DNA from: a virus
Direction: 5' to 3' (one strand)
Length of the DNA: 64,000 bases
Virus record (IMG/VR): IMGVR_UViG_3300017773_000002
Span: 1-64,000 of that record
The notes beneath the pieces were generated by a model. It did not search any database. It worked only from the letters and a program-made list of their open reading frames with translations, and was not told where the DNA came from. Both the position numbers and the translations under genes were made by a program. Within the stretch, counting starts at the first letter, position 1; each line of letters begins with the position of its first letter. Positions 19,456 through 31,961 of this stretch are shown here, piece by piece.

Positions 19456-21276
19456 ATGTATAATTGGAAAGTTGTTATCATAACAATACTTCTATTATGT
19501 ACAGTAAGAGTAATGGACCCCAAGTTAGTCGAACAATTCCGACTAAATTATTTTGATTCTCTTCAGTCATATCAAGAACCTATACAATCTGACAACATAG
19601 TCATTGTCGATATCGACGAGAAGGCTTTAGATAAGTACGGTCAGTTTCCATTTAGTCGAGACATATATGCAGACTGGTTAATGTCTTCTCCAGAGAATAG
19701 TGCCTATGTTTTCAATATGGGTTTTACTGAAAAGGATAGGTTCGGTGGGGATGAAAAACTTATATCTTCTATGTCTAATAGGGATGTCATCTTATCCTCA
19801 TTAACAACAAATCAGTTAGAGAGCAACGAGGCGCCTCCTAGGGGGTTCGGCAAACTCGGTAATGGAAATCCTTCTGACTGGTTGTATTCCTACAACGGAA
19901 TAAGAAATCCTATAATGGGAAAGGACTCTGCCGGAGTCGGAACTGTTACTGTCGCCCCTTCTGTAGATGGTATTGTTAGGGAGTCTCCTTTAGCAGTACT
20001 ATCTAACGACCACCTCTATCCTTCTGTTGCTTTAGAGATACTTCGTGTCTGGGAGTTCCAACCCAACCTTGCAATAAAAATAAAAGAAGCTGGAGTGGAG
20101 TGGGTGAGAATGGGTTCACTTCCTCCTATGTACACCACACCAAACTCAAATGTACAAATAGCCTATTGGAACACCTACGAAAGAGTATCCTTTGGAGACC
20201 CTCTACCAGACGAAAAAATAATCATACTGGGTTTGAGCGCCGGAGGATTAGTCAATCCTGTAGCAACTCCTACGGGTGCTATGTTGCCCCATGATATCCA
20301 AGCACACCTAATATCTACTGTGGTGAACGGTATTCAAATACAAAGGCCTTGGTATGCAGATCAGTTAGAAATACTAGTCATCATTATGTCTTCATTTCTT
20401 ATCCTTCTCATAGTCTACAAAACACCGACATGGTTTTCTGCTCTCGGTTCATTAGGAATAATGTCTAGTTGGGTTGCTGTGGGTCATTACTATTGGATGG
20501 AATCTCTTATACTACTGGATGTATTGTATCCGGTGATGTCATCCTTTATAGTATTTGCGCATTCTTCTTTTAATAGATTCTATGTTACTTTCCAACTCAA
20601 AGAGCAGATAAAGAAACAGTTTGGAACTTATCTATCTCCAGACATGGTCTATATGCTTCAGAAGGATCCTTCACTCCTAAAACTTGGAGGAGAGAAGAAA
20701 GAGATGTCCTTTCTTTTTATGGACATATGTGGATTTACTCCTATCAGTGAACACTATAAAAATAAAGACGACCCTGAAGGATTAGTAGAGTTGGTAAATG
20801 AATTCTTAGACGCTATGACAAAAATTATATTATCTAATGGAGGAACTATTGACAAGTATATGGGGGACTGCATAATGGCATTTTGGAATGCACCATTGCC
20901 CTGTGAAAACCATGCTGAAATGGCAGTTAAATCAGCTATTGAAATAGAAGAAAAAACAAATGAACTTAAAGGGATCTATAAAGCCCGCGGCCTTCCTGAC
21001 ATTAATGTTGGTACTGGGATTAACACCGGCGATTGTATTGTTGGCAACATGGGTAGTGAATCCAGATTTGACTATTCGGTTATTGGAGATGCGGTCAACT
21101 TGGCAGCTAGACTAGAAGCTACGGCAGCACGAGGAGATTACTTAGAACATAAGACTATTATATCTAGTTATACACAAGAACAACTGAGTGATAGTTTTAG
21201 ATGTCAAGAAATAGGAAACATAAAGGTTAAAGGTAAGGAAGAACTAATAACCATTTATAAACCCAAACTTATATAA
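19456..21276 (+). CDS. CHASE2-domain class III adenylate cyclase
   Basis: VIVDIDEKAL..GQFP and DGIVR (CHASE2), three TMs, FMDICGFT, DKYMGDC, GDAVNLAARLE. Confidence 0.93.
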   Translation: MYNWKVVIITILLLCTVRVMDPKLVEQFRLNYFDSLQSYQEPIQSDNIVIVDIDEKALDKYGQFPFSRDIYADWLMSSPENSAYVFNMGFTEKDRFGGDEKLISSMSNRDVILSSLTTNQLESNEAPPRGFGKLGNGNPSDWLYSYNGIRNPIMGKDSAGVGTVTVAPSVDGIVRESPLAVLSNDHLYPSVALEILRVWEFQPNLAIKIKEAGVEWVRMGSLPPMYTTPNSNVQIAYWNTYERVSFGDPLPDEKIIILGLSAGGLVNPVATPTGAMLPHDIQAHLISTVVNGIQIQRPWYADQLEILVIIMSSFLILLIVYKTPTWFSALGSLGIMSSWVAVGHYYWMESLILLDVLYPVMSSFIVFAHSSFNRFYVTFQLKEQIKKQFGTYLSPDMVYMLQKDPSLLKLGGEKKEMSFLFMDICGFTPISEHYKNKDDPEGLVELVNEFLDAMTKIILSNGGTIDKYMGDCIMAFWNAPLPCENHAEMAVKSAIEIEEKTNELKGIYKARGLPDINVGTGINTGDCIVGNMGSESRFDYSVIGDAVNLAARLEATAARGDYLEHKTIISSYTQEQLSDSFRCQEIGNIKVKGKEELITIYKPKLI

Positions 21277-21319
21277 ATAATAAATAGTATTTGACAAACA
21301 CATATTTCTGTGTTATAAT
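21272..21319 (+). promoter_or_regulatory. Tandem late and sigma70 promoters
   Basis: TATAAATA 21272-21279; TTGACA-17-TATAAT 21291-21319. Confidence 0.7.
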
Positions 21320-21610: not shown

Positions 21611-22306
21611 GTGAAAAAGTTTAAACAATTCTGTGAGGAACTGGAACATCTCGAAGAAGGTGTAAATGATCCCGCTATATTTAAAGCGGTGTTCCTTGCT
21701 GGAGGGCCGGGTTCAGGTAAATCTTTTATTGTCGGAAAGACTGCTCTAACTTCATTTGGTTTTCGTGTAATAAATTCGGATGACGCTTTTGAGAATGCGA
21801 TGAAGAAGGCTGGAATGGAGATGAGTCCGGATAATATATTTTCTGTAAAGGGCCAAGAACTCAGAGGAAAGGCTTCAGATCTTACAGCAACTAAGAAAGA
21901 GATGTATCTCAAAGGTCGTCTTGGTATTGTTATCGATGGCACAGGTAAGGATGCTGATAAGATGTTAAAACAGAAGAAAGAACTTGAAAAAATGGGTTAC
22001 GAAACTGCCATCATTATTGTTAATACTAATCTTGATACAGCTGTAGATCGTGATGCACAACGTAAAAGATCTATCGGTAAAAAAATGTTGTCTCCTATGT
22101 GGCAGGCTGTACAAGATAATATTGGAAAGTTTCAACAGATGTTTGGAAAATCTAACACATACATAGTTGATAATAGTGATGGAAAAGATTTTAAGAAAGA
22201 AACTATGGCAGCATATAAAGGTGTGGGACAATGGTCAAAGAAACCTCCATCATCTAGACTTGCTAAGAAATGGGTATCACAAGAAAAGAAAAATAAGACT
22301 AGATAA
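21611..22306 (+). CDS. P-loop kinase (zeta toxin/Pnk-like) with CTS-like N-terminus
   Basis: AGGPGSGKS, INSDD, VIDGT, RxxxR lid; starts MKKFKQFCEE. Confidence 0.8.
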   Translation: MKKFKQFCEELEHLEEGVNDPAIFKAVFLAGGPGSGKSFIVGKTALTSFGFRVINSDDAFENAMKKAGMEMSPDNIFSVKGQELRGKASDLTATKKEMYLKGRLGIVIDGTGKDADKMLKQKKELEKMGYETAIIIVNTNLDTAVDRDAQRKRSIGKKMLSPMWQAVQDNIGKFQQMFGKSNTYIVDNSDGKDFKKETMAAYKGVGQWSKKPPSSRLAKKWVSQEKKNKTR

Positions 22307-22322
22307 TTAAGGAATATATATT

Positions 22323-22502
22323 ATGAAAGAATGGAGTATTGACATCAAGGAAGACCGAAAGGTTTTTGTTGACGGAGATAAACTTGATACTTACGGAATA
22401 AAACTGGAAAGAGAGATAAGACTCTTATCTAATAAGGGTCCTAGGTATAGCAAAAAACTTAATCGACTTAAGAAGTTGCTTAAATTTCATAAAGGATTGT
22501 AG
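22323..22502 (+). CDS. Small basic hypothetical protein (59 aa)
   Basis: AAGGA RBS; open frame fills the gap. Confidence 0.55.
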   Translation: MKEWSIDIKEDRKVFVDGDKLDTYGIKLEREIRLLSNKGPRYSKKLNRLKKLLKFHKGL

Positions 22503-22504
22503 TT

Positions 22505-22786
22505 ATGTGGGAAAATATTGAACGTATGTTTGGTGACACTTTGTGGATCTACACCGCTATAGGTGGAAGTATTCTAGGTGCATTGTTTATTGCTTACATG
22601 AGAGACACTAAGGTTGCTATGTGGGCATTTGGTAAGTGGGACACTCTAATAGATAGTTTAGTTGAGAAGTATGAATGGACTTGGTTAACCCAAGATCCCA
22701 ATGCTTGGAAGAAAGTAAATCCCAATATTGCCAGAAAAATAGATCAACTAGAAGCTAGAATTATAGAATTGGAGAAAGAACTATGA
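22505..22786 (+). CDS. Membrane protein
   Basis: N-terminal TM, C-terminal coiled coil. Confidence 0.65.
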   Translation: MWENIERMFGDTLWIYTAIGGSILGALFIAYMRDTKVAMWAFGKWDTLIDSLVEKYEWTWLTQDPNAWKKVNPNIARKIDQLEARIIELEKEL

Positions 22787-23553
22787 GTATATTATTAAAC
22801 AATGTCCGAGAGAGAAGTTCTCTGTTCGCAAAACTTAGTGCTATCGCTTACCTACCTTTGAAGGAAGCTAAAAAAGAATCTAAGAAACTTGGTTTTACTC
22901 AAGTAGAATTTTATGATAAGGATGGTGCTCAGGCATATCGTTTTCAGAATAAAAAAGATTTGGTTATTGCTTGTAGGGGAACGCAACCCACAGAGTTTAA
23001 TGATATTAGTGCTGATCTTAAAGCAATACCTGTTATTTCCGAAACTATAAGTAGGGTTCACCGAGGATTTAAAGGAGAGGTGGATGAACTCTGGCCTATG
23101 ATAAAAGAAGATCTAGTACCTAAAGTTTTCGCAAAGAGAACTTTGTGGGTGACTGGTCATAGTCTGGGTGCTGCAATGGCAACTATCATAGCTGCAAGAT
23201 GTACTTTGGACGAGGATATGCCCAATGTTGAGGAACTTTATACATACGGTTCCCCTAGAGTTGGTTGGAGAAGATACTGTCAAAGTCTTCCGGTAAAACA
23301 TTACCGATGGAGAAATAATAACGATATTGTTACTACGGTTCCTTTGGTATTGATGGGTTATACTCATCATGGAGATTCTTGTTATATCAATGCCTATGGA
23401 CAGGTTCGTGATCTAACTACTTGGCAAAGAGTCAAGGACAAGTTGAGAGGAATGTGGATGGGTATTAAGGTTGGTCGCATTGATAATTTTAGTGACCATA
23501 ACATTGGTGCTTATATTGAGCATCTGGATAATTGGATAGAAGAGGATAAATAA
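22783..23553 (+). CDS. Class 3 lipase
   Basis: RGT, VHRGF, GHSLGAA, YGSPRVG, NDIV..VP, DH. Confidence 0.92.
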   Translation: MSILLNNVRERSSLFAKLSAIAYLPLKEAKKESKKLGFTQVEFYDKDGAQAYRFQNKKDLVIACRGTQPTEFNDISADLKAIPVISETISRVHRGFKGEVDELWPMIKEDLVPKVFAKRTLWVTGHSLGAAMATIIAARCTLDEDMPNVEELYTYGSPRVGWRRYCQSLPVKHYRWRNNNDIVTTVPLVLMGYTHHGDSCYINAYGQVRDLTTWQRVKDKLRGMWMGIKVGRIDNFSDHNIGAYIEHLDNWIEEDK

Positions 23554-23718
23554 ATGTCATACTTAAAAAAGTTAATGGGTGAAAGAACATCTTGGGACGG
23601 AATCACTTTGGTTGGTATCTGCGGATCGGTTATTTTGTTTGGTGGTATCGCTAAACTTATCGCTTGGGTAGGCCTTGGTTACGGTCTTTGGACATTGTTT
23701 AAGTCTGAAGATAAATAA
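23554..23718 (+). CDS. Small 2-TM protein (54 aa)
   Basis: MSYLKKLMGERTSWDG followed by hydrophobic helices. Confidence 0.6.
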   Translation: MSYLKKLMGERTSWDGITLVGICGSVILFGGIAKLIAWVGLGYGLWTLFKSEDK

Positions 23719-23729
23719 AAAAAAAAGAC

Positions 23730-23758
23730 TTGACATTCCTCTCAGTATGTGGTAAAAT
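23730..23758 (+). promoter_or_regulatory. sigma70-type promoter
   Basis: TTGACA-17-TAAAAT. Confidence 0.7.
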
Positions 23759-23785
23759 GTCTACTTACTACTGAGAGATGTTCAT

Positions 23786-24181
23786 ATGAATTTGTTATAT
23801 ATTTCAGGTCGTATTAAAAACAAAAAACGTGTGGAATCTTACATCCATGCATTATCTAAAGAGTTAGGTATTCACCGACTCCGAACAAAAACAATTACTG
23901 TTACATTTAAAAATGAATTGGATTCCGATGCCCAAGGATATTGTCTGGGTGATAGAGAAGAAGTTGAAATTGATATTGCAAGAAACAGTTGTGGTAATCC
24001 ATTGGATATGGAATCCATGATGAAAACCTTAGCTCATGAGATGGTTCATGCAAAGCAATGGTTGAGAGGAGAAATAAACGATCAAGGTGATACTTGGAAA
24101 GGTATGGAGACTAGTGGAGAAGAACCTTGGGAAGTTGAAGCATACGATCTTGAAGATAGTCTCTATGAAAAATGTTGGTAA
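23786..24181 (+). CDS. HEXXH zinc metallopeptidase-like protein
   Basis: LAHEMVHAKQ...PWEVEA. Confidence 0.8.
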   Translation: MNLLYISGRIKNKKRVESYIHALSKELGIHRLRTKTITVTFKNELDSDAQGYCLGDREEVEIDIARNSCGNPLDMESMMKTLAHEMVHAKQWLRGEINDQGDTWKGMETSGEEPWEVEAYDLEDSLYEKCW

Positions 24182-24187
24182 AATAGG

Positions 24188-24225
24188 TTGACAATACTTG
24201 TTTAATCTGTTATAATACTTGTATT
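24188..24225 (+). promoter_or_regulatory. Early promoter with conserved downstream element
   Basis: TTGACA-17-TATAAT-ACTTGTATT. Confidence 0.8.
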
Positions 24226-24242
24226 GATAATAAGGAGAAGGT

Positions 24243-24425
24243 ATGACACCGTTAGCTATAGCGCATAAAGAATTGTCAGAAGAACTTGAAGGTTTTATTC
24301 TTCTTATGCAAGATGAGGATTTTGATAATTTGCCTGACTATATGTCGGAAAGGATAATTAAAGAAAGAAACCGACTCGAAATGTTACTCGAAGTACTGGA
24401 GGAAGACGATGAATTTATTGAATAA
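24243..24425 (+). CDS. Small acidic hypothetical protein
   Basis: AGGAG RBS downstream of the promoter. Confidence 0.65.
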   Translation: MTPLAIAHKELSEELEGFILLMQDEDFDNLPDYMSERIIKERNRLEMLLEVLEEDDEFIE

Positions 24426-24538
24426 AGTATTACACTTTTTTATGTTGATTACTGGTCATTATGAAATAGAAGCTATAAAAAAATTAAGAAATGACCCAAA
24501 TTATGATTATTATGGAAATTACATTGGAGAAAATATAA

Positions 24539-24760
24539 ATGATGAATACGAATGAAAATTTAAAAACTGTTCTACTAGGATTTCTGTTGCTTTTTGTAAC
24601 ATTCTTATTTTTTGTAACACTAATAAACTCTATAACTATACCTGACGTTTATGTTAGCAACTCTACTGAGGAATGTGTCAAGGTTATTAATTATGATTCT
24701 AATGATAATTATTCATGTGATAATCTTCCTAGTAAGTACCACAAAGTATGGGTGAAATAA
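24539..24760 (+). CDS. Small exported or membrane protein with a Cys pair
   Basis: TM segment then ECVKV...YSCD. Confidence 0.6.
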   Translation: MMNTNENLKTVLLGFLLLFVTFLFFVTLINSITIPDVYVSNSTEECVKVINYDSNDNYSCDNLPSKYHKVWVK

Positions 24761-24761
24761 T

Positions 24762-24974
24762 ATGACCATGGCCTACTGCGACTACATCGCTTACACTATA
24801 CTTCAACCAGCACTAGAAAAAGATAGGATTGGTGAAGGTGTTGTTAAATCTGTTGGTAAGGTTAATATGGATCTTGAACCAGAAGAGGGTTATATGGTAT
24901 CTACATCAAAATGGGTAGATGTTGTCGATGTAAATGGAAAGACGTACAGAGTAACTGTAGAGGAAATCGACTAG
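24762..24974 (+). CDS. Hypothetical protein
   Basis: ORF track; tight packing. Confidence 0.6.
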   Translation: MTMAYCDYIAYTILQPALEKDRIGEGVVKSVGKVNMDLEPEEGYMVSTSKWVDVVDVNGKTYRVTVEEID

Positions 24975-25210
24975 TGACACCGCAAGAGATATCAGACTTC
25001 AAACAATCTTGGATGGGTGAGACGACTTATACGTACTCCACTATGGCGTATTGGACGGCTACATACTTTTGTAAGAATAACTTCGAATCCCAAAACTACC
25101 ACCGTCAAAGACACGCTAACCCAGATGACTCTCACAAATTTTTATTCTTTAAAGTCGAAGACTACCGAGAATTCGTAAACTTCTTTGAAGGATTCGAGTT
25201 CGAATATTAA
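24974..25210 (+). CDS. Hypothetical protein
   Basis: GTG start after AGGA, coupled to the previous stop. Confidence 0.5.
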   Translation: MTPQEISDFKQSWMGETTYTYSTMAYWTATYFCKNNFESQNYHRQRHANPDDSHKFLFFKVEDYREFVNFFEGFEFEY

Positions 25211-25238
25211 TTTTTTTCACTTATTTTGAAAATAATAC

Positions 25239-25276
25239 TTGACAATACTTGCCCAATGAAGTATAATACTTGTATT
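25239..25276 (+). promoter_or_regulatory. Early promoter with conserved downstream element
   Basis: TTGACA-17-TATAAT-ACTTGTATT. Confidence 0.8.
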
Positions 25277-25304
25277 GATTATGAGAACTGAGAGAGAAAA
25301 TATT

Positions 25305-25475
25305 ATGAAAGTTATTAAAGTAGATATAAAAGATGTTAGAGAATTTCGTTCTGGTTATGAACTAGTAGAATATGAAGCTGGTACTGATCCTTTAGATGGT
25401 TTCTGTCTTTTAGGTTTTGACGAAGTTGGAATGTTCTGCGAAAATCCTCGATATGCTTTTGTTGGAGGTCAGTAA
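25305..25475 (+). CDS. Small hypothetical protein
   Basis: First ORF after the promoter; GAGAGAG leader. Confidence 0.55.
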   Translation: MKVIKVDIKDVREFRSGYELVEYEAGTDPLDGFCLLGFDEVGMFCENPRYAFVGGQ

Positions 25476-26164
25476 TGTATAATTACTTTGACTACCCTGA
25501 CTACGACTCTGATGAATATAAGTATAATCAGTACTTAGGGAACCACATAAACAAACAAAATAAAGGCAGTCGTGGTAGAGATACTGAACGAAGTAAGACC
25601 TATAGTGCTGAGTGGGCCTTTCAGAGAAAGATCGAAGACATCGAGTTCAGTACTATCGAAGAAGCTAAAAAATATGCAAAGCGAATATACAAGTCTAAGA
25701 CTTGGAGAAAGCTTTGGATGGAAAGTGTCGAAGAAGACGTGTTGTCATTGATTAGAAGTCAACCTAAGATAGTTGAGATGCAAAGAAAGAGCACTCGATT
25801 TAGTGGTAAGACTGATGGATTCACTGTAGTACTAAACTCTGATGGTGGATTCAATAGGTACACTCTCATTCATGAACTTACGCACTGCCTAGGTCATATG
25901 CATCATGGTAGATCTTTTCGAAGAACTCTTCTGAAATTAGTTGGTACCTTTATGGGAACCAAAGAAAGAGATATTCTTAAGTCCCAATTCAAACGAAGAA
26001 AGCTGTCCGTAGGAAAATCTAGAACTCCTCTCACATTTGATGCGTGGATGGAGTCTCGAAAACGTATGGAGAAGCTTCGAGAAGAGAAAGAGTTCCGTGC
26101 CGAGTGTCTTGCAATGCACGAGAAACTAGAAAAAAGAAGACTAAGAAAATTAGAAAATGCTTGA
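25475..26164 (+). CDS. HEXXH metallopeptidase-like protein (SprT-like)
   Basis: LIHELTHC..HHGRSF. Confidence 0.75.
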   Translation: MYNYFDYPDYDSDEYKYNQYLGNHINKQNKGSRGRDTERSKTYSAEWAFQRKIEDIEFSTIEEAKKYAKRIYKSKTWRKLWMESVEEDVLSLIRSQPKIVEMQRKSTRFSGKTDGFTVVLNSDGGFNRYTLIHELTHCLGHMHHGRSFRRTLLKLVGTFMGTKERDILKSQFKRRKLSVGKSRTPLTFDAWMESRKRMEKLREEKEFRAECLAMHEKLEKRRLRKLENA

Positions 26165-26189
26165 CAATGAATGAAAAGTGTGTTATAAT
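26161..26189 (+). promoter_or_regulatory. sigma70-type promoter
   Basis: TTGACA-17-TATAAT. Confidence 0.75.
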
Positions 26190-26224
26190 TCCCCCTACAT
26201 TAATGATTAAAGTGAGAACTTGTT

Positions 26225-26905
26225 ATGTTCAATCATGTTGATATTGAATTGAAAGAGATGACTGCGGTAACTACCGATAAAGGTCGTCAGTACAGAACAC
26301 CCGAAGGTGTGAACTTACCTTCTATAACTACAGTCCTATCTATTCTAAGTAGGGACTCTATTGCCAAGTGGCGAGCTCGAGTTGGTGAGAAGGAAGCTAA
26401 TAGGATTTCCTATCGTTCATCTACTCGTGGAACTGCCGTTCACGAAATCATTGAAAAGTATATCGACAATGATCCAGATTATCGTTTGGGTTATACTCCC
26501 GATATTGTCGCTTCTCTTAATGATGTCAAACCAATTCTCGATAGTAATATCGATAATGTCTATGCCCAAGAGGCACCCCTCTACAGTAACCATCTTGGTG
26601 TTGCTGGCCGAGTCGACTGCATTGCAGAATATAACGGAAAACTTTCCATCATCGACTTCAAAACTTCTATGAAACCAAAGCGAAAAGATTGGATCAATAA
26701 CTACTTCATGCAAGAAGCTGCTTATGCTATTATGTTTGAAGAAAGAACTGGTAGACCAATAACTCAGTTGGTTACCATTATATCGGTTGATGGTGCGAAT
26801 GAACCACAAATATTTGTCGAACATCGTGACAATTGGGTTCGTCCTCTCAGAGAAACTATCGCAAAATATAATAAGGAACAAGAATCCACTTGCGTTTTAT
26901 TATAA
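26225..26905 (+). CDS. PD-(D/E)XK exonuclease
   Basis: PSITTVL, RGTAVH, AGRVDC, IIDFKTS, Q..AY. Confidence 0.88.
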   Translation: MFNHVDIELKEMTAVTTDKGRQYRTPEGVNLPSITTVLSILSRDSIAKWRARVGEKEANRISYRSSTRGTAVHEIIEKYIDNDPDYRLGYTPDIVASLNDVKPILDSNIDNVYAQEAPLYSNHLGVAGRVDCIAEYNGKLSIIDFKTSMKPKRKDWINNYFMQEAAYAIMFEERTGRPITQLVTIISVDGANEPQIFVEHRDNWVRPLRETIAKYNKEQESTCVLL

Positions 26906-26908
26906 ATA
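26901..26908 (+). promoter_or_regulatory. T4-type late promoter
   Basis: TATAAATA upstream of speD. Confidence 0.6.
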
Positions 26909-26949
26909 GTGGTATAATAATCCACTATAATAAAATAAGGCGTTAGACA

Positions 26950-27318
26950 ATGTTAGTACATAAACATTTGATAATACGTGCTGAGTGCATGGACCCTCCT
27001 ACATGTCCTGAATATGTGGAACGGTGGTTGAAAAATATGGTAGAATTGATAGGTATGAAAGTATGTAGGGGTCCTATCAGCGCATATGTCGATGTAAAGG
27101 GCAACGAAGGAGCTACAGGAGTTGTTATTATAGAAACTTCTCATATCGCAATTCATGTCTGGGATCACAGATCTCCCGCTCTAGTGCAACTTGATGTGTA
27201 TACTTGCGGTGATTTTGAACCACAGAAGATTTTCAATGCACTTAAAGAGTTTGATGTCACTAAACTAGAATACAAATATTTGGATAGAGAACACGAATTA
27301 GTTGAAATACCATTATAA
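26950..27318 (+). CDS. speD: Pyruvoyl-dependent S-adenosylmethionine decarboxylase family protein
   Basis: G.TGVVIIETSHIAIHVW, LDVYTCG. Confidence 0.88.
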   Translation: MLVHKHLIIRAECMDPPTCPEYVERWLKNMVELIGMKVCRGPISAYVDVKGNEGATGVVIIETSHIAIHVWDHRSPALVQLDVYTCGDFEPQKIFNALKEFDVTKLEYKYLDREHELVEIPL

Positions 27319-27323
27319 AGGGC

Positions 27324-27352
27324 TTGACAATTTTTATTTCATAGTGTATATT
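27324..27352 (+). promoter_or_regulatory. sigma70-type promoter
   Basis: TTGACA-17-TATATT. Confidence 0.55.
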
Positions 27353-27387
27353 ATGATTATAAATTAAATTTTACAGGATATTTTAAA

Positions 27388-28455
27388 ATGGCTTATAATT
27401 TTTTTCCAAAAAACGGAGTTGAGCTTTCTGAGGGCATAAAAAATCTTAGTGGTAAGGAACAATCTGAAATTACTACATTGTTTCACTATCTTAAGGAGAC
27501 CACTGGAATGGAGTCTCCAATCAATATAGATAAAAATAAACCTAGAAATGTTAATGTTTCTCGTGCTATTGATGGTACTATAACTTTACAACAAATAAAA
27601 AGAAACGCAAAATTAGATAAAATAAAAATTAAATTCGGAAATGGTAGTTCGGGAAATCGTGGAGTAAACAACCGAGGAAATCTCTTTGAACCTCAGTTTG
27701 CTGATGCTATATTAAAATGGTGGGAAGGTGATACTACAGGTATTAACAAAGAAATGTTAGATGCTATTGAGGATATCGATAATACATATAATCTTCGAGG
27801 AAGTTCTACATTAAAAATTGATGTTGTTGGTGGGGAAAATACCAAAAGGCCTTTAAAATTCTCTCCAACTATATTGTTGACTAACACTAAGGGTACTGGT
27901 AATGATATAGGAAAATCTGTTACTGATATTACATTGCACACAGACTCCGAAAAAATATACCTTTCTCTTAAACTAGGTACAACTACCACCTTTTTCAATG
28001 TTGGGGTTAGAAAAATTTTAACTCCTACCGAAATAAAGAATAATAATATAACAAATGTTAATGGTCTGAAATTATTAAAAACCTTTGGGATAGATTCCGA
28101 TATATTTTGTTCGGTATTTAATCAAACTTTTGATGGGAGAAATTTTCAGAGAAAAATTATTAAATATGACAATAATGCTGTAAAAAAACTTTTAGAAAGT
28201 GGTGTCGGTTACGGTTATCATATCATTCATAAGATGCGTGGAAAGATATTATCTAAACAGATGAATAAAAAATCTATGCAGATAGCATCCAAACCGCAAT
28301 CTCTAACAGTATTTTATGGTGGAAAAACTGGTCGAGGCAGAAGAGTTGACATGGTATTAGAAACTCCAACCTACACCATGAAACTTAATATAAGAGACAC
28401 TCAGGGTGGTGATGGTTATCCTACGCGAATGATGTGCGATTTTACTTATAAGTAA
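27388..28455 (+). CDS. Restriction-endonuclease-like PD-(D/E)XK protein
   Basis: GNLFE...VTDITL....YLSLK; AT-rich. Confidence 0.5.
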   Translation: MAYNFFPKNGVELSEGIKNLSGKEQSEITTLFHYLKETTGMESPINIDKNKPRNVNVSRAIDGTITLQQIKRNAKLDKIKIKFGNGSSGNRGVNNRGNLFEPQFADAILKWWEGDTTGINKEMLDAIEDIDNTYNLRGSSTLKIDVVGGENTKRPLKFSPTILLTNTKGTGNDIGKSVTDITLHTDSEKIYLSLKLGTTTTFFNVGVRKILTPTEIKNNNITNVNGLKLLKTFGIDSDIFCSVFNQTFDGRNFQRKIIKYDNNAVKKLLESGVGYGYHIIHKMRGKILSKQMNKKSMQIASKPQSLTVFYGGKTGRGRRVDMVLETPTYTMKLNIRDTQGGDGYPTRMMCDFTYK

Positions 28456-28460
28456 CTATT

Positions 28461-29681
28461 ATGCAATTTAATCAATTTATAACAGAACAAAAGAACACTC
28501 ACATGACCCACATAGAGGATAAGGTTCTCTATGGGGGCGTGAATGGTACACGTCAGGCTATCTTTGCATTAAGGAGTTTGCGAGATATGTTGGCTGGGAA
28601 GAAGTCTTCCAAACTCTCAGTAAAATGGGATGGCGCACCCGCTGTGTTCGCTGGACAAGATCCTTCGGACGGCAAGTTCTTTGTAGCGAAGAAAGGAATC
28701 TTCGCCAAGAACCCAAAGGTTTATAAGACAGACGAAGAAATTGATAAGGATATGTCTGGAGACTTGGCTTCAAAGATGAAAGATGCATTAAAGTATCTTC
28801 CAGAATTAGGAATCAAAGGAGTTGTCCAAGGTGACTTCGTATTTTCAAAACAAGATTTATCTAAGAAAAAGATTGACGGTACAAGTTATGTTGTGTTTCA
28901 TCCAAACACTATTGCATATGCGGTTCCGGTAGAACAAGCTAAAGAAATACTTCGTGCTAAGATTGGTATTGTATGGCACACTACTTATACCGGAAACACC
29001 TTCGAGTCTATGAAGGCTTCATACGGGGTTGATGTTTCTAGGTTCAAAAAATCTACCAATGTATGGTCACAGGATGCAATGTTGCGTGATGTCTCTAGTG
29101 CCACAATGAATGAGAAGGAAACTGAGGAAGTTAATAAACACCTAAGTACTTGTGGAGTCTTGTTTAATAAGATATCTGGAACTACTTTACGACAACTGGA
29201 GAGTAACCAAGATCTCGCACAACTACTGGAACAATACAACAACACTTTAGTGCGCAAAGGAATGATCATAGGTAACACTTCTATGCACGTAAAAGGATTG
29301 TTGAAATGGATAGAATCTAAGTACCAGAAAGAGATAGATAAGAGGAAGACTGAGAAGGGTAAAGGTGTTCAGCAGAAGAAGTTAGACGAAATACTAAAAT
29401 TCTTCTCTCCTCAGAACAGAAAATCTCTTATTAGTATGTACGAATTACAGAAAAGTATCGTACTTGCGAAGTTAATTCTTATAAATAAACTTAACAGATT
29501 GAAGAAAATTGACACATTTGTCAAAACACCCAATGGTTACAAGGTAACTGGAGAAGAAGGTTACGTAGCTATTGATGTAATTGGTGGTGATGCGGTGAAG
29601 TTAGTTGATCGTATGGAGTTCTCATACAATAACTTTTCACCTGATATACTTAAAGGATGGGATAAACCAACTAGGAACTAA
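28461..29681 (+). CDS. KxDG covalent nucleotidyltransferase/ligase-like protein with CTS-like N-terminus
   Basis: SVKWDG, QGDF, EEGYV and VKLVDR occur in the order of ligase motifs I, III, IV, V; starts MQFNQFITE. Confidence 0.6.
   Translation: MQFNQFITEQKNTHMTHIEDKVLYGGVNGTRQAIFALRSLRDMLAGKKSSKLSVKWDGAPAVFAGQDPSDGKFFVAKKGIFAKNPKVYKTDEEIDKDMSGDLASKMKDALKYLPELGIKGVVQGDFVFSKQDLSKKKIDGTSYVVFHPNTIAYAVPVEQAKEILRAKIGIVWHTTYTGNTFESMKASYGVDVSRFKKSTNVWSQDAMLRDVSSATMNEKETEEVNKHLSTCGVLFNKISGTTLRQLESNQDLAQLLEQYNNTLVRKGMIIGNTSMHVKGLLKWIESKYQKEIDKRKTEKGKGVQQKKLDEILKFFSPQNRKSLISMYELQKSIVLAKLILINKLNRLKKIDTFVKTPNGYKVTGEEGYVAIDVIGGDAVKLVDRMEFSYNNFSPDILKGWDKPTRN
29480..29487 (+). promoter_or_regulatory. Possible intragenic late promoter
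   Basis: TATAAATA about 200 nt upstream of ORF 29683. Confidence 0.45.
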
Positions 29682-29682
29682 A

Positions 29683-30147
29683 ATGGCCAAGAAAATTCTA
29701 GGATTAAAGGATTTTATTGCTGTTGATTACACCATGACTGGTGACGAACAGTTAGCAAAAAAATCAAAGAAAAGAAAGAACGAAGAGGTAGAAGATACCA
29801 ACGAAGTTCTTGACATTGCCCAGAGACGTGCGCGTGGTAGAATGATGAAGCGCATGAAGTCTAAAATTGCTATGGGTAAAAGACGTGCCGCACGTAAAGT
29901 GGCATCCATTGACAAACTCAAGGTTCGTGCTAGAAGACAAGCACGAAACATGATGGTCAAAAAAATTACTAAAGATATTCCTAAAGCTGACCTCTCAATG
30001 GCCAGAAAGAAGGAAATTGAAAAGAGATTAGAAAAACCTGCCTTTAAGAATCGTATAGATAGAATTGCACGTAAATCATTACCCAAGGTAAGACGTGCAG
30101 AGATCGAGAAAAAACGAGGAAGTAAGAATAAGGAAGGTAATAAGTAA
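29683..30147 (+). CDS. Very basic Arg/Lys-rich protein
   Basis: RRARGRMMKRMK... composition; AGGA RBS before ATG 29683. Confidence 0.7.
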   Translation: MAKKILGLKDFIAVDYTMTGDEQLAKKSKKRKNEEVEDTNEVLDIAQRRARGRMMKRMKSKIAMGKRRAARKVASIDKLKVRARRQARNMMVKKITKDIPKADLSMARKKEIEKRLEKPAFKNRIDRIARKSLPKVRRAEIEKKRGSKNKEGNK

Positions 30148-31961
30148 TGCCAATTAAGAATTTTTCTCAATATCTAGTTGAAGAAGAACGATCGGTATTT
30201 TTTACGTTTGGGAGAATGAATCCTCCTACTATTGGTCATGGGAAAGTCATGGACACTCTTGCCGCAAAGTCTGGTAAGAATGACTATAAAGTATATGTGT
30301 CTCAATCACAAAACTCCAAGAAAGACCCACTCTCTTATGGAGACAAGGTAAAACATATTCGAAAGATGTTCCCAAAACACGGTAGGAACATCATGATTGA
30401 CAAGAAAGTTAAGACAGCATTTGATGCGGTTGTATCTCTTTATGATCAAGGTTATAAGAGTGTAACTATGATTGTTGGTGCTGATAGAGTTCGTGAGTTT
30501 GATGTACTCCTAAAGAAATACAACGGAGTCAAAGCTCGACACGGATTCTACAACTTTAAGAATATTAACATTGTTTCTGCTGGTGCAAGAGACCCTGACG
30601 CTGAAGGTGTCGAGGGTATGTCCGCATCTAAACAAAGAGAGAACGCCAAAAAGAATGACTTTGTCTCATTCTCTCAAGGTGTTTCTAAGTCTATGTCTAA
30701 TTCGGACGCACGTAAGTTATTCAACGATGTTCGTTCGGGTATGGGACTAAAAGAAACTACCGAATTCCGAAATCATGTGTCACTTACTCCTCTTTCAGAA
30801 GAAAGAGAAGCGTTTGTACGTGGAGAATTATTCTCCGTTGGCGATATGGTTGTCATCAAAGAATCTGAAGAAATCGGTAAGGTTATTCAATTAGGCGCTA
30901 ACTTTGTTATAGTCGAGTCTAACGGTAAGGAATACCGAAAGTGGTTGAATTCGATTGAAAAACTGGATGAAGCTTGTTGGAAAGGTTACAAACAAGTTGG
31001 AATGAAGAAGAAAGGTGCTAAGATGGTACCTGACTGCGTACCAGAAGAGTCTGGTGCTGGTGAAGAAGGAACTGATAAGTTAGTTAAAAAGTATAAGAAA
31101 GATACGCCTATGCAAGAAAAGAAACGAAAGGTTTCTGAGGGATTATCTATTAGGAGTATGATGGAAGAAGTTTCTCAAAAAGAGTTAAATGACTTAGAGA
31201 AATTTGCTGACAGACTACTAAATAAGTTTGATGTTGATATAGAATTCACTCGTCACTTTGCTGATCGAATGAATGATAAAAGAAACAAACCATCCATTAC
31301 TATCGCTGAACTACAGCGTCTGTTTAAGAAGATGGCGATGAACAAAGGTAAAAAGATAAAGAAACATGGTAACAGAGAAGCAATCCTAAAGGATATGCAG
31401 TCTGACCTAAATTTACCTGTCGTGGTTAACTGGAAGAATGGTGAGTTTGAAGTTGTAAATAAAACGATTATGCGGAAGAAGGCATTCAAATCTCCTGATC
31501 CACAAATTAAATACGAAGCACAAGACCCAGATATTAAGGATCGTGAAGGTACACAACCAGCACGATACCATAAAGGATTGAAGAAGTCTACAAAGGCTAA
31601 GAGAGACGCCCATTTTAAGAAGCATGGTAAGAAAGCGGACGATGATTCATCTGCATACAAACCAGCTCCGGGCGACAAATCTGCCGAAACTAAACCTTCA
31701 AAGTACACTAAGGCTTTCAGAGATATGTACAACGAAGAACATAGTATGGAAAATGTTAATGAATCTTCTTTTGAAGACAAGTCAAAGAAGAGTGGAATAT
31801 CAGTTGCGACACTTAAGAAGGTATATCGACGAGGTGTTGCTGCATGGAAAACTGGCCATAGGCCCGGCACGACTCCGGAACAATGGGGTCATGCAAGAGT
31901 GAATGCGTTTATAGTAAAGAAGAAAAAGGGTGGTCTTAACCACGATAAAGACTTAGCATAA
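30147..31961 (+). CDS. HxGH-family (cytidylyltransferase-like) nucleotidyltransferase with multiple C-terminal modules
   Basis: FGRMNPPTIGH, VGADRV, GMSASKQR; starts MPIKNFSQYLVEE. Confidence 0.82.
   Translation: MPIKNFSQYLVEEERSVFFTFGRMNPPTIGHGKVMDTLAAKSGKNDYKVYVSQSQNSKKDPLSYGDKVKHIRKMFPKHGRNIMIDKKVKTAFDAVVSLYDQGYKSVTMIVGADRVREFDVLLKKYNGVKARHGFYNFKNINIVSAGARDPDAEGVEGMSASKQRENAKKNDFVSFSQGVSKSMSNSDARKLFNDVRSGMGLKETTEFRNHVSLTPLSEEREAFVRGELFSVGDMVVIKESEEIGKVIQLGANFVIVESNGKEYRKWLNSIEKLDEACWKGYKQVGMKKKGAKMVPDCVPEESGAGEEGTDKLVKKYKKDTPMQEKKRKVSEGLSIRSMMEEVSQKELNDLEKFADRLLNKFDVDIEFTRHFADRMNDKRNKPSITIAELQRLFKKMAMNKGKKIKKHGNREAILKDMQSDLNLPVVVNWKNGEFEVVNKTIMRKKAFKSPDPQIKYEAQDPDIKDREGTQPARYHKGLKKSTKAKRDAHFKKHGKKADDDSSAYKPAPGDKSAETKPSKYTKAFRDMYNEEHSMENVNESSFEDKSKKSGISVATLKKVYRRGVAAWKTGHRPGTTPEQWGHARVNAFIVKKKKGGLNHDKDLA

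Follow-up and report, generated by a model that had tools for sequence, protein, structure and literature searches.

We describe three enzymes encoded in a viral DNA stretch of 64,000 nucleotides (the window); the stretch belongs to a fragment of 88 kb from a pelagimyophage-like relative of T4. Because they bear a T4-type head-loading tag at their N-termini, the three enzymes are probably injected together with the phage DNA. Our preferred reading, to which we assign slightly less than even confidence, is that a marine T4-like phage carries them as head-cargo (internal) enzymes, with an ancient linked pair and an optional kinase, and that they act on nucleic-acid ends. An initial annotation had seen in them a pre-loaded counter-defence kit; its observation of three leader-bearing, motif-bearing enzymes is confirmed, and its interpretation is partly supported.

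The enzymes and their leaders

The three enzyme ORFs are non-contiguous, lie on the plus strand and have the coordinates first assigned to them (Table 1). A gap of about 6 kb separates the kinase gene from the pair; it accommodates seven other ORFs, among these lipase_3, a SprT-like protein, a PD-(D/E)XK nuclease and SpeD. Every motif named in the initial annotation is present in the translations, and the enzyme classes were also correct: a Pnk/Zeta-type kinase, a ligase-like protein without OB domain and an NMNAT/PPAT-like protein.

Table 1. Positions of the enzymes, their leaders and neighbouring elements in the window
Feature	Position	Strand	Remarks
Late-promoter-like TATAAATA, T4-type	21272..21279	+	upstream of ORF 21356 and kinase; at end of ORF 19456-21276
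P-loop kinase, Zeta_toxin/AAA_33 type, 231 aa	21611..22306	+	GTG start 3 bases past ORF 21356 stop
Kinase leader MKKFKQFCEE, T4 capsid-targeting-like	21611..21640	+	strict/loose patterns
Late-promoter-like TATAAATA	26901..26908	+	at nuclease gene end; precedes speD, ORF 27388, ligase-like gene and later genes
Gene in variable slot, phrog_8438	27388..28455	+	directly upstream of ligase-like gene
DUF6267 protein, predicted RNA-ligase-like lysine nucleotidyltransferase, 406 aa	28461..29681	+	helical insert 218-347; no OB domain
Ligase-like leader MQFNQFITE	28461..28487	+	residues 1-8 disordered in model
Late-promoter-like TATAAATA	29480..29487	+	within 3' end of ligase-like gene; precedes basic protein and adenylyltransferase genes
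Small, very basic (K/R-rich) protein, internal-protein-like	29683..30147	+	between the two enzymes
HxGH-type adenylyltransferase domain, NMNAT/PPAT fold, residues 1 to ~205	30147..30761	+	Pfam, model, fold searches
Adenylyltransferase leader MPIKNFSQYLVEE	30147..30185	+	conserved in orthologues
C-terminal modules of ORF 30147	30762..31961	+	small beta-barrel ~230-275, low-confidence linkers, DUF5824 (471-602)
Three small ORFs with similar leaders (MKTFKEIRE, MKRFSQFLSE, MMKSFREY...VTE)	36203..37456	+	
63-aa ORF, leader-like start MRTFKQW...FEE	41244..41435	+	loose match only

The kinase possesses the motifs GGPGSGKS, INSDD and RDAQRKR and matches the Pfam families Zeta_toxin (1.9e-10) and AAA_33 (2.1e-8) as well as phrog_12810 (1.8e-42) and the polynucleotide kinase family phrog_505 (1.9e-9). 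Its sole T4 match is the kinase domain of Pnk; a BLASTP alignment with Pnk residues 3-148 (E 7e-5, 21% identity) superimposes the P-loop, INSDD/INRDD and Arg motifs. Among PDB sequences, adenylate kinase (E 0.0028) and zeta toxin (E 0.098) scored best; there was no match at E <= 0.01 to the Pfam families of the NadR kinase (AAA_28) and CoaE, and no NCBIfam model scored above its cut-off.

ORF 28461 belongs to Pfam family DUF6267 (6.5e-105), of which we found no mention in the literature searched. It contains in order KWDG (K55), QGDF (123-126), EGYV (366-369) and VKL (379-381); residues K55, D57, G58, D125, E366, G367 and K380 are invariant in the family alignment (n=111, 34-60% identity). An invariant KNTHxxHxED core directly follows the leader. 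The model (pLDDT 94.5) ends about 25 residues past motif V, i.e. the OB domain is absent. With VIA-align, the top eight chains were all RNA ligases, at Z values of 6.9-7.8 over 167-200 residues, which lie below the value of 8 commonly reached, according to the tool, by models lacking a clear match; a fungal tRNA ligase LIG-KIN structure headed the list, tied with others. Neither profile searches against PDB sequences nor hhalign comparisons with T4 Rnl1 and Rnl2 were significant. RNA_lig_T4_1, found in 4 of the 111 members (best E 6.2e-4), is the sole recurring, biologically sensible Pfam family beside DUF6267, and we rate the match of the modelled protein to the ligase fold as only middling. 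The Foldseek check proposed in the initial annotation gave a best E of 0.22 for this protein; ORF 30147 matches NadD (8aih, E 8.9e-5) and PPAT (1od6, E 1.6e-4), with 23 chains at E <= 1e-3.

In ORF 30147 as a whole (30147-31961, 604 aa), TIGH (28-31) and SASKQR (159-164) were identified, and G22, R23, N25, P26, P27, T28, G30, H31, S159, K162 and R164 are invariant in 45 orthologues. The Pfam match is to CTP_transf_like (1.4e-4, 22.5 bits versus a cut-off of 21), and the pLDDT exceeds 90 over residues 10-200 of the model. VIA-align ranked NadM 2qjt and 3h05 (both Z 12.7) as well as archaeal NMNAT 1f9a and PPAT 4nah (both Z 12.1) highest, with NadR lower among the structural matches. PPAT, NadD and NMNAT tie within 1 Z; the substrate is not readable from the modelled fold. 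The C-terminal part matches DUF5824 (4.9e-25), and residues 342-454 are matched by phrog_23027 and phrog_14518.

The T4-type leaders postulated for the three enzymes are real: all resemble those of the T4 record (MKTYQEFIAE in IPII and IPIII, MKTFKEF...ITE in IPI) and are kept in most orthologues. When the first 15 residues of the 136 contig ORFs are compared with a strict pattern, F..[FYW]..E, four ORFs fit, where 0.5 would be expected from its internal frequency, and three of the four are the enzymes; ORF 36843 fits as well and is a neighbour of the pair in 31 of the 82 loci. Among kinase orthologues with covered N-terminus, the leader is present in strict form in 4/8 and in loose form in 6/8; for the ligase-like protein these values are 48/78 and 67/78 (with [LIVM]xE in residues 4-18 in 75/78), and 56 of 63 adenylyltransferase orthologues have the strict form. 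In 45 orthologues of the latter, F6 is invariant and E12 nearly so. The leader is an N-terminal add-on located exactly ahead of the conserved DUF6267 core, and it is optional across this family: 45 of 150 representatives carry it in strict form, and 17 of the 91 whose core was recognised by the pattern start at the core. According to PMC9026906, positions 4 and 7 matter for targeting in T4 and positions 8 and 10 for processing; in the leaders described here, these are aromatic, aromatic, aliphatic and Glu.

The T4-type late-promoter-like motif TATAAATA is found at gene boundaries ahead of the kinase and ahead of the operon of the pair. In the window overall it is not enriched: it has 14 matches where 8.5 are expected, a count also attained in 7 of 100 shuffles.

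Linkage and distribution of the genes

The initial annotation had treated the three genes as one obligatory kit and had proposed their phylogenetic co-occurrence as a check; it turned out that the pair travels together and that the kinase is sporadic. The genes of the ligase-like protein and the adenylyltransferase lie side by side in 77 of the 82 related loci; in the other five the sequence 3' of the ligase-like gene comprises at most 1,455 bases. A single PHROG profile spans both proteins. Among the best 120 of 386 long DUF6267 proteins, motif patterns signal fusions of the pair in either order (68 adenylyltransferase-ligase, 8 ligase-adenylyltransferase), and Pfam confirmed the fusion in three of ten long representatives tested. 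In 56 of the 82 loci the basic protein is encoded between the two enzymes or next to them; some of its orthologues begin with MLSFKQFVSE or MKSFKEF, and the same module constitutes the C-terminus of kinase fusion proteins. The slot directly upstream is variable: its genes in C48C1, HTVC008M, S-SZBM1 and Syn9 show no BLASTP similarity to ORF 27388 or to each other (best E 0.13).

Among phage records, DUF6267 matched 367 named 'Synechococcus' and 61 named 'Cyanophage'; the corresponding numbers for the T4-type prohead protease were 379 and 61, in a separate search, and the two record sets were not cross-checked. The pair appears near-universal in marine T4-like phages. It is core also to cyanophages whose ligase-like protein is leaderless, such as S-SZBM1; its function would therefore be independent of packaging.

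The kinase gene lies within 10 kb of the pair in only 10 of the 82 loci and is present in one of four complete relatives; it is an optional extra outside any fixed kit. Of 120 long kinase forms, 80 are fused to basic cargo-like modules versus 37 to the ligase-like enzyme; kinase-ligase fusions are also seen in P0121 and at locus L028, and in L057 (730 aa) and L065 (689 aa) an adenylyltransferase precedes a kinase. The fusions, above all those of the kinase, may represent cargo polyproteins and reflect co-packaging rather than shared chemistry.

Packaging, chemistry and alternative readings

The contig is about 53% complete and contains neither a prohead protease nor head genes; both the protease and the presence of the adenylyltransferase in virions are known from relatives only. 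A T4-type prohead protease (Peptidase_S77) is encoded by all four complete marine relatives. The adenylyltransferase, annotated as cytidylyltransferase, was detected in the virion proteomes of S-CREM2, together with two neighbouring ORFs (PMC10665884, Table 3), and of S-SZBM1 (PMC9146016, Table 1). These findings make the virion pre-loading proposed in the initial annotation plausible. The S-SZBM1 adenylyltransferase, which was detected, carries the leader MRFRQFIIEA, and the ligase-like protein of this phage, which is leaderless and starts at the core, is not among the virion proteins of Table 1 in PMC9146016; this difference favours packaging by the leader, and the missing ligase-like homologue at the same time counts against a packaged pair. 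The neighbouring ORF139 (457 aa) was detected in the virion and has no leader, and only 2 of 228 ORFs of this phage have a strict one, so leader and virion detection are loosely coupled in S-SZBM1. The opinion that no such packaged set had been described holds only in part: PMC10665884 proposes that kinases and cytidyltransferases are virion-borne and enter the host, calls the cytidyltransferase an NMNAT homologue and suggests that its delivery conditions the host. Packaging is thus already partly in print, the protein having been detected in two proteomes and injection suggested in one paper; the authors of the latter add that abundant late proteins may co-purify with virions.

According to our preferred reading, each enzyme would be made late with its leader of about 10 residues, which would bring it into the prohead core. 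A gp21-type protease would cut the leader off after Glu ([LIV]-x-E), and the mature enzyme would leave the capsid with the DNA and be active ahead of any phage gene expression. The cargo would comprise the ancient, tightly linked pair, i.e. DUF6267 as a lysine nucleotidyltransferase of RNA-ligase fold and the NMNAT/PPAT-fold adenylyltransferase, plus the optional Pnk/Zeta-type kinase. With respect to chemistry, we infer that the pair most likely acts on nucleic-acid ends: the ligase-like enzyme, charged on K55, would adenylylate or seal 5'-phosphate ends, the adenylyltransferase would produce or replenish the adenylate donor on the spot (NAD+ from NMN and ATP, for example), and the kinase, where present, would provide 5'-phosphates. 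An ATP-dependent ligase needs no adenylyltransferase; the coupling of the two is therefore a conjecture.

Alternatively, DUF6267 could stand in for gp30 or Rnl2 as the nick-sealing ligase that marine T4-like phages are missing, and serve replication, recombination or pre-packaging repair inside the infected cell, with its NMNAT-like partner supplying NAD+ to DUF6267 or to host LigA; the leader would have been added secondarily in particular lineages, and packaging would be beside the point. The four complete marine relatives lack a PF01068 or PF01653 DNA ligase domain, which T4 has, and homologues of g30, rnh, rnlA and pseT were not found in cyanomyoviruses according to the reviews PMC2984593 and PMC1079782. 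The record counts of DUF6267, from sets not cross-checked, are near those of the protease, Syn9 gp183 is a full-length member (hhalign E 5.3e-43), the pair comes after the primase-helicase, polymerase and MazG genes in HTVC008M, S-SZBM1 and Syn9, and many members have no leader. We nevertheless regard this reading as rather unlikely: in fold the protein comes closest to RNA ligases without an OB domain and not to DNA ligases, the leader is borne by most members of the clade represented in the window, the gene lies here downstream of a late-promoter-like site, and a host ligase could suffice, as argued in a review. That the enzymes are not packaged at all and act only inside the infected cell, their shared N-terminus being a translation-initiation or mRNA feature or a tag for another late assembly and no targeting signal in this lineage, would agree with the contig's lack of head genes, with the leaderless ORF139 and rare strict leaders of S-SZBM1 and with the co-purification caveat. 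This is very unlikely, as the leader agrees closely with the T4 sequence defined by experiment, targeting and cleavage positions included, sits on unrelated proteins and belongs to an adenylyltransferase found in virions by two independent proteomes.

The adenylyltransferase, with the kinase where present, might also rebuild or boost a dinucleotide cofactor at the start of infection, as NadR (NMNAT plus ribosylnicotinamide kinase) or CoA synthase (PPAT plus dephospho-CoA kinase) would, with the aim of overcoming defences that deplete NAD+ or of giving a slow host a quick start. In that case the cofactor would be consumed or transferred by the ligase-like enzyme, whose task would not be RNA repair. 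The top structural matches are indeed NMN/NaMN adenylyltransferases including NadM, NadR being lower and PPAT tied, and the fusions of L057 and L065 have the corresponding domain order. Characterised members of the Zeta_toxin family, to which the kinase belongs, phosphorylate nucleotide sugars or NAD. The naming as NMNAT homologue and the virion delivery suggested in PMC10665884 point in the same direction. On the other hand, the fold specifies no substrate, the kinase matches neither AAA_28 nor CoaE nor any NCBIfam model at the thresholds given above and is missing from three of four complete relatives, and the welding of the adenylyltransferase to a ligase-fold enzyme is left unexplained; we judge this proposal decidedly unlikely. 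The exact idea of the initial annotation, namely that the three enzymes are an obligatory heal-and-seal kit which, like T4 Pnk plus Rnl1, repairs tRNA cut by anticodon nucleases, profits from the similarity of the kinase to Pnk, the recurrence of RNA_lig_T4_1, the kinase-ligase fusions and the tied top match to a tRNA ligase. It is highly improbable, given the sporadic kinase, which is the kinase half of Pnk only, and a constant partner without a role in the T4 pathway. No 3'-end healing enzyme, i.e. no phosphatase or cyclic phosphodiesterase, occurs among the leader-bearing ORFs, the kinase included, a point that counts against our preferred reading as well.

Comparison with known systems

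With T4 Pnk (PseT) and RnlA, the system described here shares a P-loop kinase that aligns with the Pnk kinase domain and an OB-less ligase-like enzyme that is linked by structure, and weakly by sequence, to RNA ligases, Rnl1 among them. Unlike in T4, a 3'-phosphatase domain is absent, the obligatory partner is an adenylyltransferase and the kinase is optional. T4 Pnk and RnlA are not known to have a capsid-targeting leader. The best structural matches of DUF6267 are the OB-less, ATP-dependent RNA ligases fungal Trl1-LIG, T. brucei REL1, Naegleria NgrRnl (Rnl5) and T4 Rnl2 (Z 7.2-7.8, 175-200 aligned residues, rmsd 3.9-4.5), with which it shares motifs I, III, IV and V in order. It differs from them in lacking a connection by sequence profiles, in having about 130 residues inserted as helices between motifs IIIa and IV, and in a conserved N-terminal KNxHxxHxED element. 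In motif III it has Asp; ligases usually have Glu.

Like NadM, archaeal NMNAT, NadD, NadR and PPAT (CoaD), the adenylyltransferase combines invariant T/HxGH and SxxKxR motifs with the matching fold, and the adenylyltransferase-kinase fusions of relatives recall NadR or CoA synthase in the order of their domains. In contrast to these enzymes, its sequence is too dissimilar to be recognised with PDB or NCBIfam profiles, and it has a head-targeting leader as well as additional C-terminal modules, DUF5824 among them. S-CREM2 ORF154 and S-SZBM1 ORF140 belong to the same family and occupy the same position beside DUF6267. They were identified by mass spectrometry in CsCl-purified virions, and carriage into the host was suggested by the authors; the sections covered of both papers mention neither leader nor ligase-like neighbour, and the naming differs between NMNAT homologue (PMC10665884) and glycerol-3-phosphate cytidylyltransferase (PMC9146016).

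The closest parallel to the proposed packaging is offered by T4 IPI, IPII and IPIII (and Alt), with their capsid-targeting sequence, processing by gp21 and injection, a route that the enzymes described here would share. As in T4, a leader of about 10 residues, MK-x-[FY]-x-x-[FY]-[LI]-x-E, precedes otherwise unrelated proteins, and a T4-type prohead protease exists in the complete relatives. A review of T4 considers that the targeting sequence may allow T4-like phages to load varied proteins (PMC9026906). Unlike the small, basic internal proteins of T4, the putative cargo described here consists of sizeable enzymes of nucleotide-transfer classes, with 231, 406 and 604 residues.

Folds and motifs of the ligase-like protein and its partner

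All three ORFs of the initial annotation, together with every motif named there, were found in the translations of the window. ORF 28461 is a member of the Pfam family DUF6267 (E 6.5e-105), a name that occurs in no paper of the searched library. DUF6267 is very common in marine data, with at least 8,000 matching proteins after clustering at 90% identity and 2,570 matches (E <= 1e-3) among the representatives of 50%-identity clusters. Alignment A1 comprises the window protein and 110 of the 150 listed representatives (about 370-440 aa, no long extensions). Its invariant columns are H17, K55, D57, G58, G65, K78, D125, Y153, G169, H173, N261, E366, G367, K380 and F387, and these include, in canonical order, the residues KxDG, (D), EG and K that are characteristic of covalent nucleotidyltransferases. 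In motif I (KxDG), the position of the nucleotide-accepting lysine, all 111 sequences share K55, D57 and G58; Syn9 gp183, a full-length DUF6267 member with a shorter insert (E 5.3e-43) and gp184 next to it, reads KYDG. Judged from motifs and model, DUF6267 proteins are candidates for covalent lysyl-NMP charging. The AlphaFold2 model of ORF 28461 computed with A1 has a mean pLDDT of 94.5 and a pTM of 0.91. Its first eight residues are disordered, residues 218-347 form an all-helical insert, and motif V is followed by a single helix and not by an OB-fold domain, the model ending about 25 residues past K380.

Foldseek, suggested initially as a check of the fold, gave no significant match for this model (best E 0.22, nothing at E <= 0.001); DNA ligases and T4 Rnl1 are among its best rows, at E 0.2-0.4. 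VIA-align against 48,161 representative chains placed RNA ligases in all of the top eight positions, with Z-values of 6.9-7.8, a middling range, as Z < 8 is common for models without a clear match. These are Trl1-LIG-KIN (9r3w, Z 7.8, 200 residues), REL1 (1xdn, 7.8), NgrRnl (5cot, 7.8), a tRNA ligase (6n0t, 7.6), T4 Rnl2 (2hvq, 7.3; 1s68, 7.2), T4 Rnl1 (9do4, 6.9) and 9qw7 (6.9); DNA ligases rank next (Z 5-6). Because of this range of Z, we consider an RNA-ligase-like fold of the modeled protein probable, not proven. Sequence comparisons gave weak links: Pfam RNA_lig_T4_1 matches four of the 111 DUF6267 members (best E 6.2e-4), the window's own protein not being among them, and hhalign of A1 with single T4 Rnl2 and Rnl1 sequences aligned only motif IV (E 0.41) and motifs IV-V (E 0.11), respectively, both non-significant. 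Searching PDB sequences by phmmer and with the A1 profile returned nothing relevant, just low-complexity matches to the helical insert; in the ESM Atlas, ORF 28461 falls into unnamed viral clusters only. For six proteins, the kinase among them, no NCBIfam model reached its cut-off.

ORF 30147 (the ADENYLYLTRANSFERASE) exceeds the Pfam threshold for CTP_transf_like just slightly (22.5 vs 21 bits), carries DUF5824 at its C-terminus (Pfam, 4.9e-25) and matches 'cytidyltransferase' PHROGs at 2.4e-77 and 7.7e-68. In alignment A2, which consists of the window protein and 44 of 66 listed adenylyltransferase orthologues from IMG/VR loci (whole ORFs, no internal stops), the motifs GRxNPPTxGH and SxxKxR are invariant among the 45 sequences (T28, G30, H31, S159, K162, R164). 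The model is good over residues 10-200. For this domain, Foldseek found NaMN adenylyltransferase (8aih, E 8.9e-5) and PPAT (1od6, E 1.6e-4); at E <= 1e-3 there are 23 chains, and every listed one is a NadD or a PPAT. The VIA-align list is dominated by NMNAT-type enzymes: NadM (2qjt, Z 12.7, 160 residues, rmsd 3.0) and 3h05 (Z 12.7) are followed by archaeal NMNAT (1f9a, 12.1), PPAT (4nah, 12.1) and NadR (10.6 and 9.8). NMNAT, NadD and PPAT are tied within 1 Z, so that the list does not separate their substrates. Both invariant motifs and the Rossmann-like nucleotidyltransferase fold seen with Foldseek and VIA-align confirm the NMNAT/PPAT-like nature assigned initially. Phmmer and profile A2 found nothing relevant among PDB sequences, NMNAT 9rpk appearing only at E 2.1. 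Two runs of complex prediction for the DUF6267 protein and ORF 30147 (residues 1-290) each had a score of 0.00, which counts neither way.

The kinase, gene linkage and neighbourhood

The window takes up the first 64 kb of one viral contig of 88,453 bases, linear according to IMG/VR, with a GC content of about 36% and nearly all genes on the + strand. Megablast of the whole window against annotated phage records gave no match, hence none of these records is near-identical. The nearest annotated relative of ORF 28461 is found in Phage C48C1 (Kyanoviridae, 66% amino-acid identity); Pelagibacter phage HTVC008M follows with 38%. The contig also contains a curli-type operon of pelagimyophages, as described in the available text of PMC7029224. 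From these relatives and the operon, we deduce that the contig is a piece of the genome of a pelagimyophage-type, T4-like marine phage. CheckV estimates its completeness at about 53%; head genes are absent from this fragment, and no match to Peptidase_S77 (prohead protease) was found on it.

The likeness of ORF 21611 to the T4 Pnk kinase domain, noticed initially, is real. In a 150-residue BLASTP alignment with T4 Pnk (NC_000866; E 7e-5, 21% identity), the P-loop and Arg-rich motifs coincide, as does INSDD with INRDD; among T4 proteins Pnk alone matches (E 0.0045). However, the 231-aa ORF has no 3'-phosphatase half, the alignment being limited to Pnk residues 3-148 and a second Pfam domain being absent, and its Pfam families at E <= 0.01 are those of a broad kinase class, namely Zeta_toxin (1.9e-10), AAA_33 (2.1e-8) and AAA_17, and no others. 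As Zeta_toxin and AAA_33 match equally, we assign ORF 21611 to this wider class, which does not imply orthology to Pnk. In PHROGs, the best match is the unnamed phrog_12810 (1.8e-42), with phrog_505, polynucleotide kinase, being weaker (1.9e-9). Among PDB sequences, adenylate kinases (E 0.0028) and zeta toxin (E 0.098) come closest, and the ESM Atlas contributes viral Zeta/AAA_33 clusters only.

The three genes are not neighbours: 6 kb separate the kinase gene from the other two, which lie downstream of it. The interval contains genes for a class-3 lipase, an SprT-like protein, an HExxH protein, a PD-(D/E)XK nuclease, SpeD and one protein without assigned function; features with coordinates are compiled in the table. 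The GTG start of the kinase gene lies 3 bases past the stop codon of ORF 21356, which suggests translational coupling. The motif TATAAATA, considered as a late promoter, lacks enrichment over the whole window (14 matches vs 8.5 expected; 14 were reached in 7 of 100 shuffles); late promoters are suggested only by where three of the copies lie. The gene directly 5' of the ligase-like gene was rejected as a module member because the genes occupying this slot in five phages, namely that of the window, C48C1, HTVC008M, S-SZBM1 and Syn9, share no BLASTP similarity (best E 0.13). By appearance, the basic protein between the pair may be a DNA-binding internal protein. A protein of this kind, 154 aa long and extremely K/R-rich in the window, is encoded between or beside the pair in 56 of 82 loci, and some orthologues of ORF 29683 have a leader (MLSFKQFVSE). 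At the position equivalent to that of the 1201-aa FG-GAP protein, C48C1 encodes a protein of 420 aa with the same N-terminus (MANQILAGAV).

Features of the window and the pair locus of phage S-SZBM1
Feature	Coordinates	Match	Position or leader
83-aa ORF with hydrophobic N-terminus	21356-21607		between late-promoter-like site at 21272 and kinase
Kinase (ORF 21611)	21611-22306		
Class-3 lipase	22783-23553	PF01764, 2.5e-18	without leader
SprT-like metalloprotease candidate	23786-24181	24.5 bits, slightly below Pfam cut-off	without leader
229-aa protein with HELTH	25475-26164	no family match	without leader
Gene directly 5' of ligase-like gene	27388-28455		variable slot before conserved pair
154-aa very basic K/R-rich protein (ORF 29683)	29683-30147		sole separator of ORF 28461 and ORF 30147
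FG-GAP protein, 1201 aa, eight repeats	31984-35589	PF14312, 1.6e-88	directly 3' of adenylyltransferase gene
Family-25 glycosyltransferase	35631-36206	8.2e-10	among small leader-bearing ORFs
DUF7207 protein	39699-40064	5.4e-39	among small leader-bearing ORFs
Methyltransf_24 protein	40660-41244	4.7e-9	among small leader-bearing ORFs
S-SZBM1 pair locus	NC_070839 78988-82670		

Linkage was determined in 82 loci: those of C48C1 and HTVC008M, and 80 that a search of IMG/VR with the family alignment had yielded. In 77 of them an adenylyltransferase gene adjoins the ligase-like one, and in the other five the sequence downstream of the latter is no longer than 1,455 bases. The co-occurrence of all three genes, set as a test in the initial annotation, was therefore observed for this pair but not for the kinase, which occurs inside the examined flanks of 10 of the 82 loci and in one of four complete relatives: in HTVC008M it adjoins the pair, and it is absent from C48C1, a complete 146.6-kb IMG/VR genome and S-SZBM1.

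Fusions join the same partners, and a single PHROG profile, phrog_455, covers both the ligase-like protein (LIG) and the adenylyltransferase (AT). DUF6267 proteins longer than 711 aa number 386. Assigned by regular expressions rather than by HMM, the best 120 of these comprise 68 AT-LIG, 8 LIG-AT (4 of these with DUF5824) and 3 kinase-ligase (KIN-LIG) chains, the rest being 36 with other extensions, 2 LIG-DUF5824, 2 LIG-LIG and 1 unclassified. A Pfam check of 10 longer representatives confirmed the LIG/AT-type fusion in three and showed one kinase-DUF6267 fusion in addition. The commonest fused form (P0298 and similar proteins, 813 aa) has an N-terminal adenylyltransferase with the motif PGRFQPMGQHH, which we take to be nearer to the GRFQP-type NMNAT signature; ahead of the ligase-like part, fusions of this type contain an internal leader-like stretch, KELLTEAKANTH. 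Long kinase homologues number 1,463, and the best 120, classed by the same kind of expressions, include 37 KIN-LIG proteins and 80 with other C-terminal extensions, which lack ligase, adenylyltransferase and DUF5824 motifs. Eight of these 120 were compared with the contig. All three taken from the extension group contain modules like ORF 29683 (E 2.9e-7, 4.3e-8) or the small ORF 37193 (E 6.4e-6), and among the other five there is one with a module similar to the central part of ORF 30147 (E 1.2e-6). Further fusions are AT-kinase (L057, L065), DUF5824-kinase (L064) and a kinase-X-DUF6267 protein of 754 aa that reads through (L028). Since the kinase is fused mostly to basic modules resembling internal proteins, the claim that fusions prove a shared chemistry is weakened. 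Chains of head cargo that could be cut by a protease fit the pattern at least as well as a shared pathway, and the kinase fusions with basic modules suggest head-cargo polyproteins that a prohead protease may cut.

Leaders and proposed head packaging

In the T4 record NC_000866, the internal proteins IPII and IPIII start with MKTYQEFIAEA and IPI with MKTFKEFTSTTTPVSTITEA. Similar leaders begin the kinase (MKKFKQFCEE), the ligase-like protein (MQFNQFITE) and the adenylyltransferase (MPIKNFSQYLVEE), and further ORFs of the window start with MKTFKEIRE, MKRFSQFLSE, MMKSFREYTSSDVVTE and MRTFKQW. For the T4 capsid-targeting sequence, the review PMC9026906 assigns a role in targeting to residues 4 and 7 and one in processing to residues 8 and 10; at these positions the window leaders have an aromatic, an aromatic and an aliphatic residue, and Glu. 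Of the 136 contig ORFs, 4 have the strict pattern F..[FYW]..E within residues 1-15, where 0.5 are expected. Among IMG/VR orthologues whose N-terminus is covered, 48 of the 78 ligase-like proteins have this pattern (a looser one finds 67), as do 56 of 63 adenylyltransferases and 4 of 8 kinases. Comparison with the T4 N-termini, enrichment and conservation thus establish as real the T4-type leaders that had been noticed on the three enzymes. In the ligase-like protein, the leader ends directly before an invariant KNTHxxHxED element. Among the listed DUF6267 representatives, 45 of 150 have a strict leader, and 17 of the 91 with a pattern-recognised core start at this core; to judge from these N-termini, the ligase-like leader is a detachable add-on.

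A T4-type prohead protease is encoded in all four complete marine relatives examined. For two cyanophages, the available parts of virion proteome accounts list the adenylyltransferase: in S-CREM2 the cytidylyltransferase ORF154 occurs together with its neighbours ORF155 and ORF156 (PMC10665884), and Table 1 for S-SZBM1 contains the cytidylyltransferase ORF140 (362 aa) and ORF139 (PMC9146016). N-terminal processing is mentioned in these parts of neither account. The S-SZBM1 DUF6267 gene (397 aa) is, by the gene lengths in NC_070839, the next ORF after ORF140, and its product is absent from the published Table 1 as available (PMC9146016). The S-SZBM1 adenylyltransferase starts with the leader MRFRQFIIEA, whereas the DUF6267 protein starts with MAKNTHLEHLED, at the core and without a leader. 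As a single case, this pair fits the rule that a leader means packaging, in a phage where just 2 of 228 ORFs have a strict leader. ORF139 (457 aa) is a counter-case, as it was detected in the virion but has no leader.

A candidate for the missing ligase

We consider head cargo the best explanation for the three enzyme copies in the window. A rival reading is that no packaging takes place at all; the leaderless but virion-detected ORF139 speaks for it, the T4-like leaders and the adenylyltransferases detected in two virion proteomes against it. A fixed three-enzyme kit for tRNA repair, as considered initially, agrees with the Pnk-like kinase domain and the KIN-LIG fusions, but the kinase is missing from most loci and has no phosphatase half. 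As part of the head-cargo reading, we propose that the ligase-like protein and the adenylyltransferase would work together as one unit on the ends of nucleic acids, the adenylate donor being made locally and the kinase being an optional companion. The NadD and PPAT matches of ORF 30147 are in line with a rival, less likely reading as a cofactor module for NAD+ or CoA; for the DUF6267 partner, the motif series and the predicted fold point to covalent nucleotidyl transfer and RNA ligases.

In another rival reading, the ligase-like protein would be a replication or repair ligase which is packaged only secondarily. The four complete marine relatives, which all carry DUF6267, have no domain of an ATP-dependent (PF01068) or NAD-dependent (PF01653) DNA ligase; in T4, taken as the control, gp30 was found. 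For cyanomyoviruses, the available text of two reviews states that homologues of g30, rnh, rnlA and pseT were not found, and leaves distant, unidentified ones possible (PMC2984593, PMC1079782). DUF6267 occurs in 467 phage records (367 named Synechococcus, 61 Cyanophage) and the T4-type prohead protease in 379 Synechococcus and 61 Cyanophage records, these being separate searches whose record sets were not cross-matched. From these counts and from Syn9 gp183/gp184, we conclude that the pair is close to the core in this phage family, with leaders or not. This distribution and the members that lack a leader are in line with a ligase for replication or repair; the leader on most ligase-like proteins of the window's clade speaks against it.

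Head cargo and the missing ligase can be combined in one further proposal, which as a whole we rate as rather improbable. DUF6267 and its NMNAT-like partner, to which it is often fused, would be a two-enzyme sealing system in which the partner makes or recycles the adenylate donor of the OB-less ligase (NAD+ made from the NMN that is released on charging). Marine T4-like phages would then have the ligase that they have long seemed to lack. Pelagimyophage-type lineages would preload this system into the capsid, sometimes with a 5'-kinase, to seal broken phage DNA or host or phage RNA ends at genome entry. The hosts of marine T4-like phages are the ocean's most abundant bacteria, and reviews from 2005-2010 describe, in the text available, the gap left by ligase, RnlA and PseT homologues (PMC2984593, PMC1079782). 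With its ligase motifs and its probable RNA-ligase-like fold, a near-universal family of 'unknown function' whose members are regularly paired or fused with an enzyme of NAD-synthesis type is a concrete and testable candidate for filling this old gap.

Among known systems, ATP-dependent DNA ligases of the T4 gp30 type have an OB fold and a DNA_ligase_A_M domain, neither of which is present in the DUF6267 protein. NadR unites NMNAT and ribosylnicotinamide kinase activities by joining a kinase of AAA_28 type to an NMNAT domain; in the window, kinase and adenylyltransferase are encoded by separate genes 8 kb apart, and AT-kinase fusions occur in the relatives L057 and L065. The injected phage proteins known so far are small inhibitors and one ADP-ribosyltransferase. 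If the leaders act as in T4, this set would extend to a family of nucleotide-transfer enzymes, and the leader would provide a sequence rule for predicting the injected cargo of uncultured phages.
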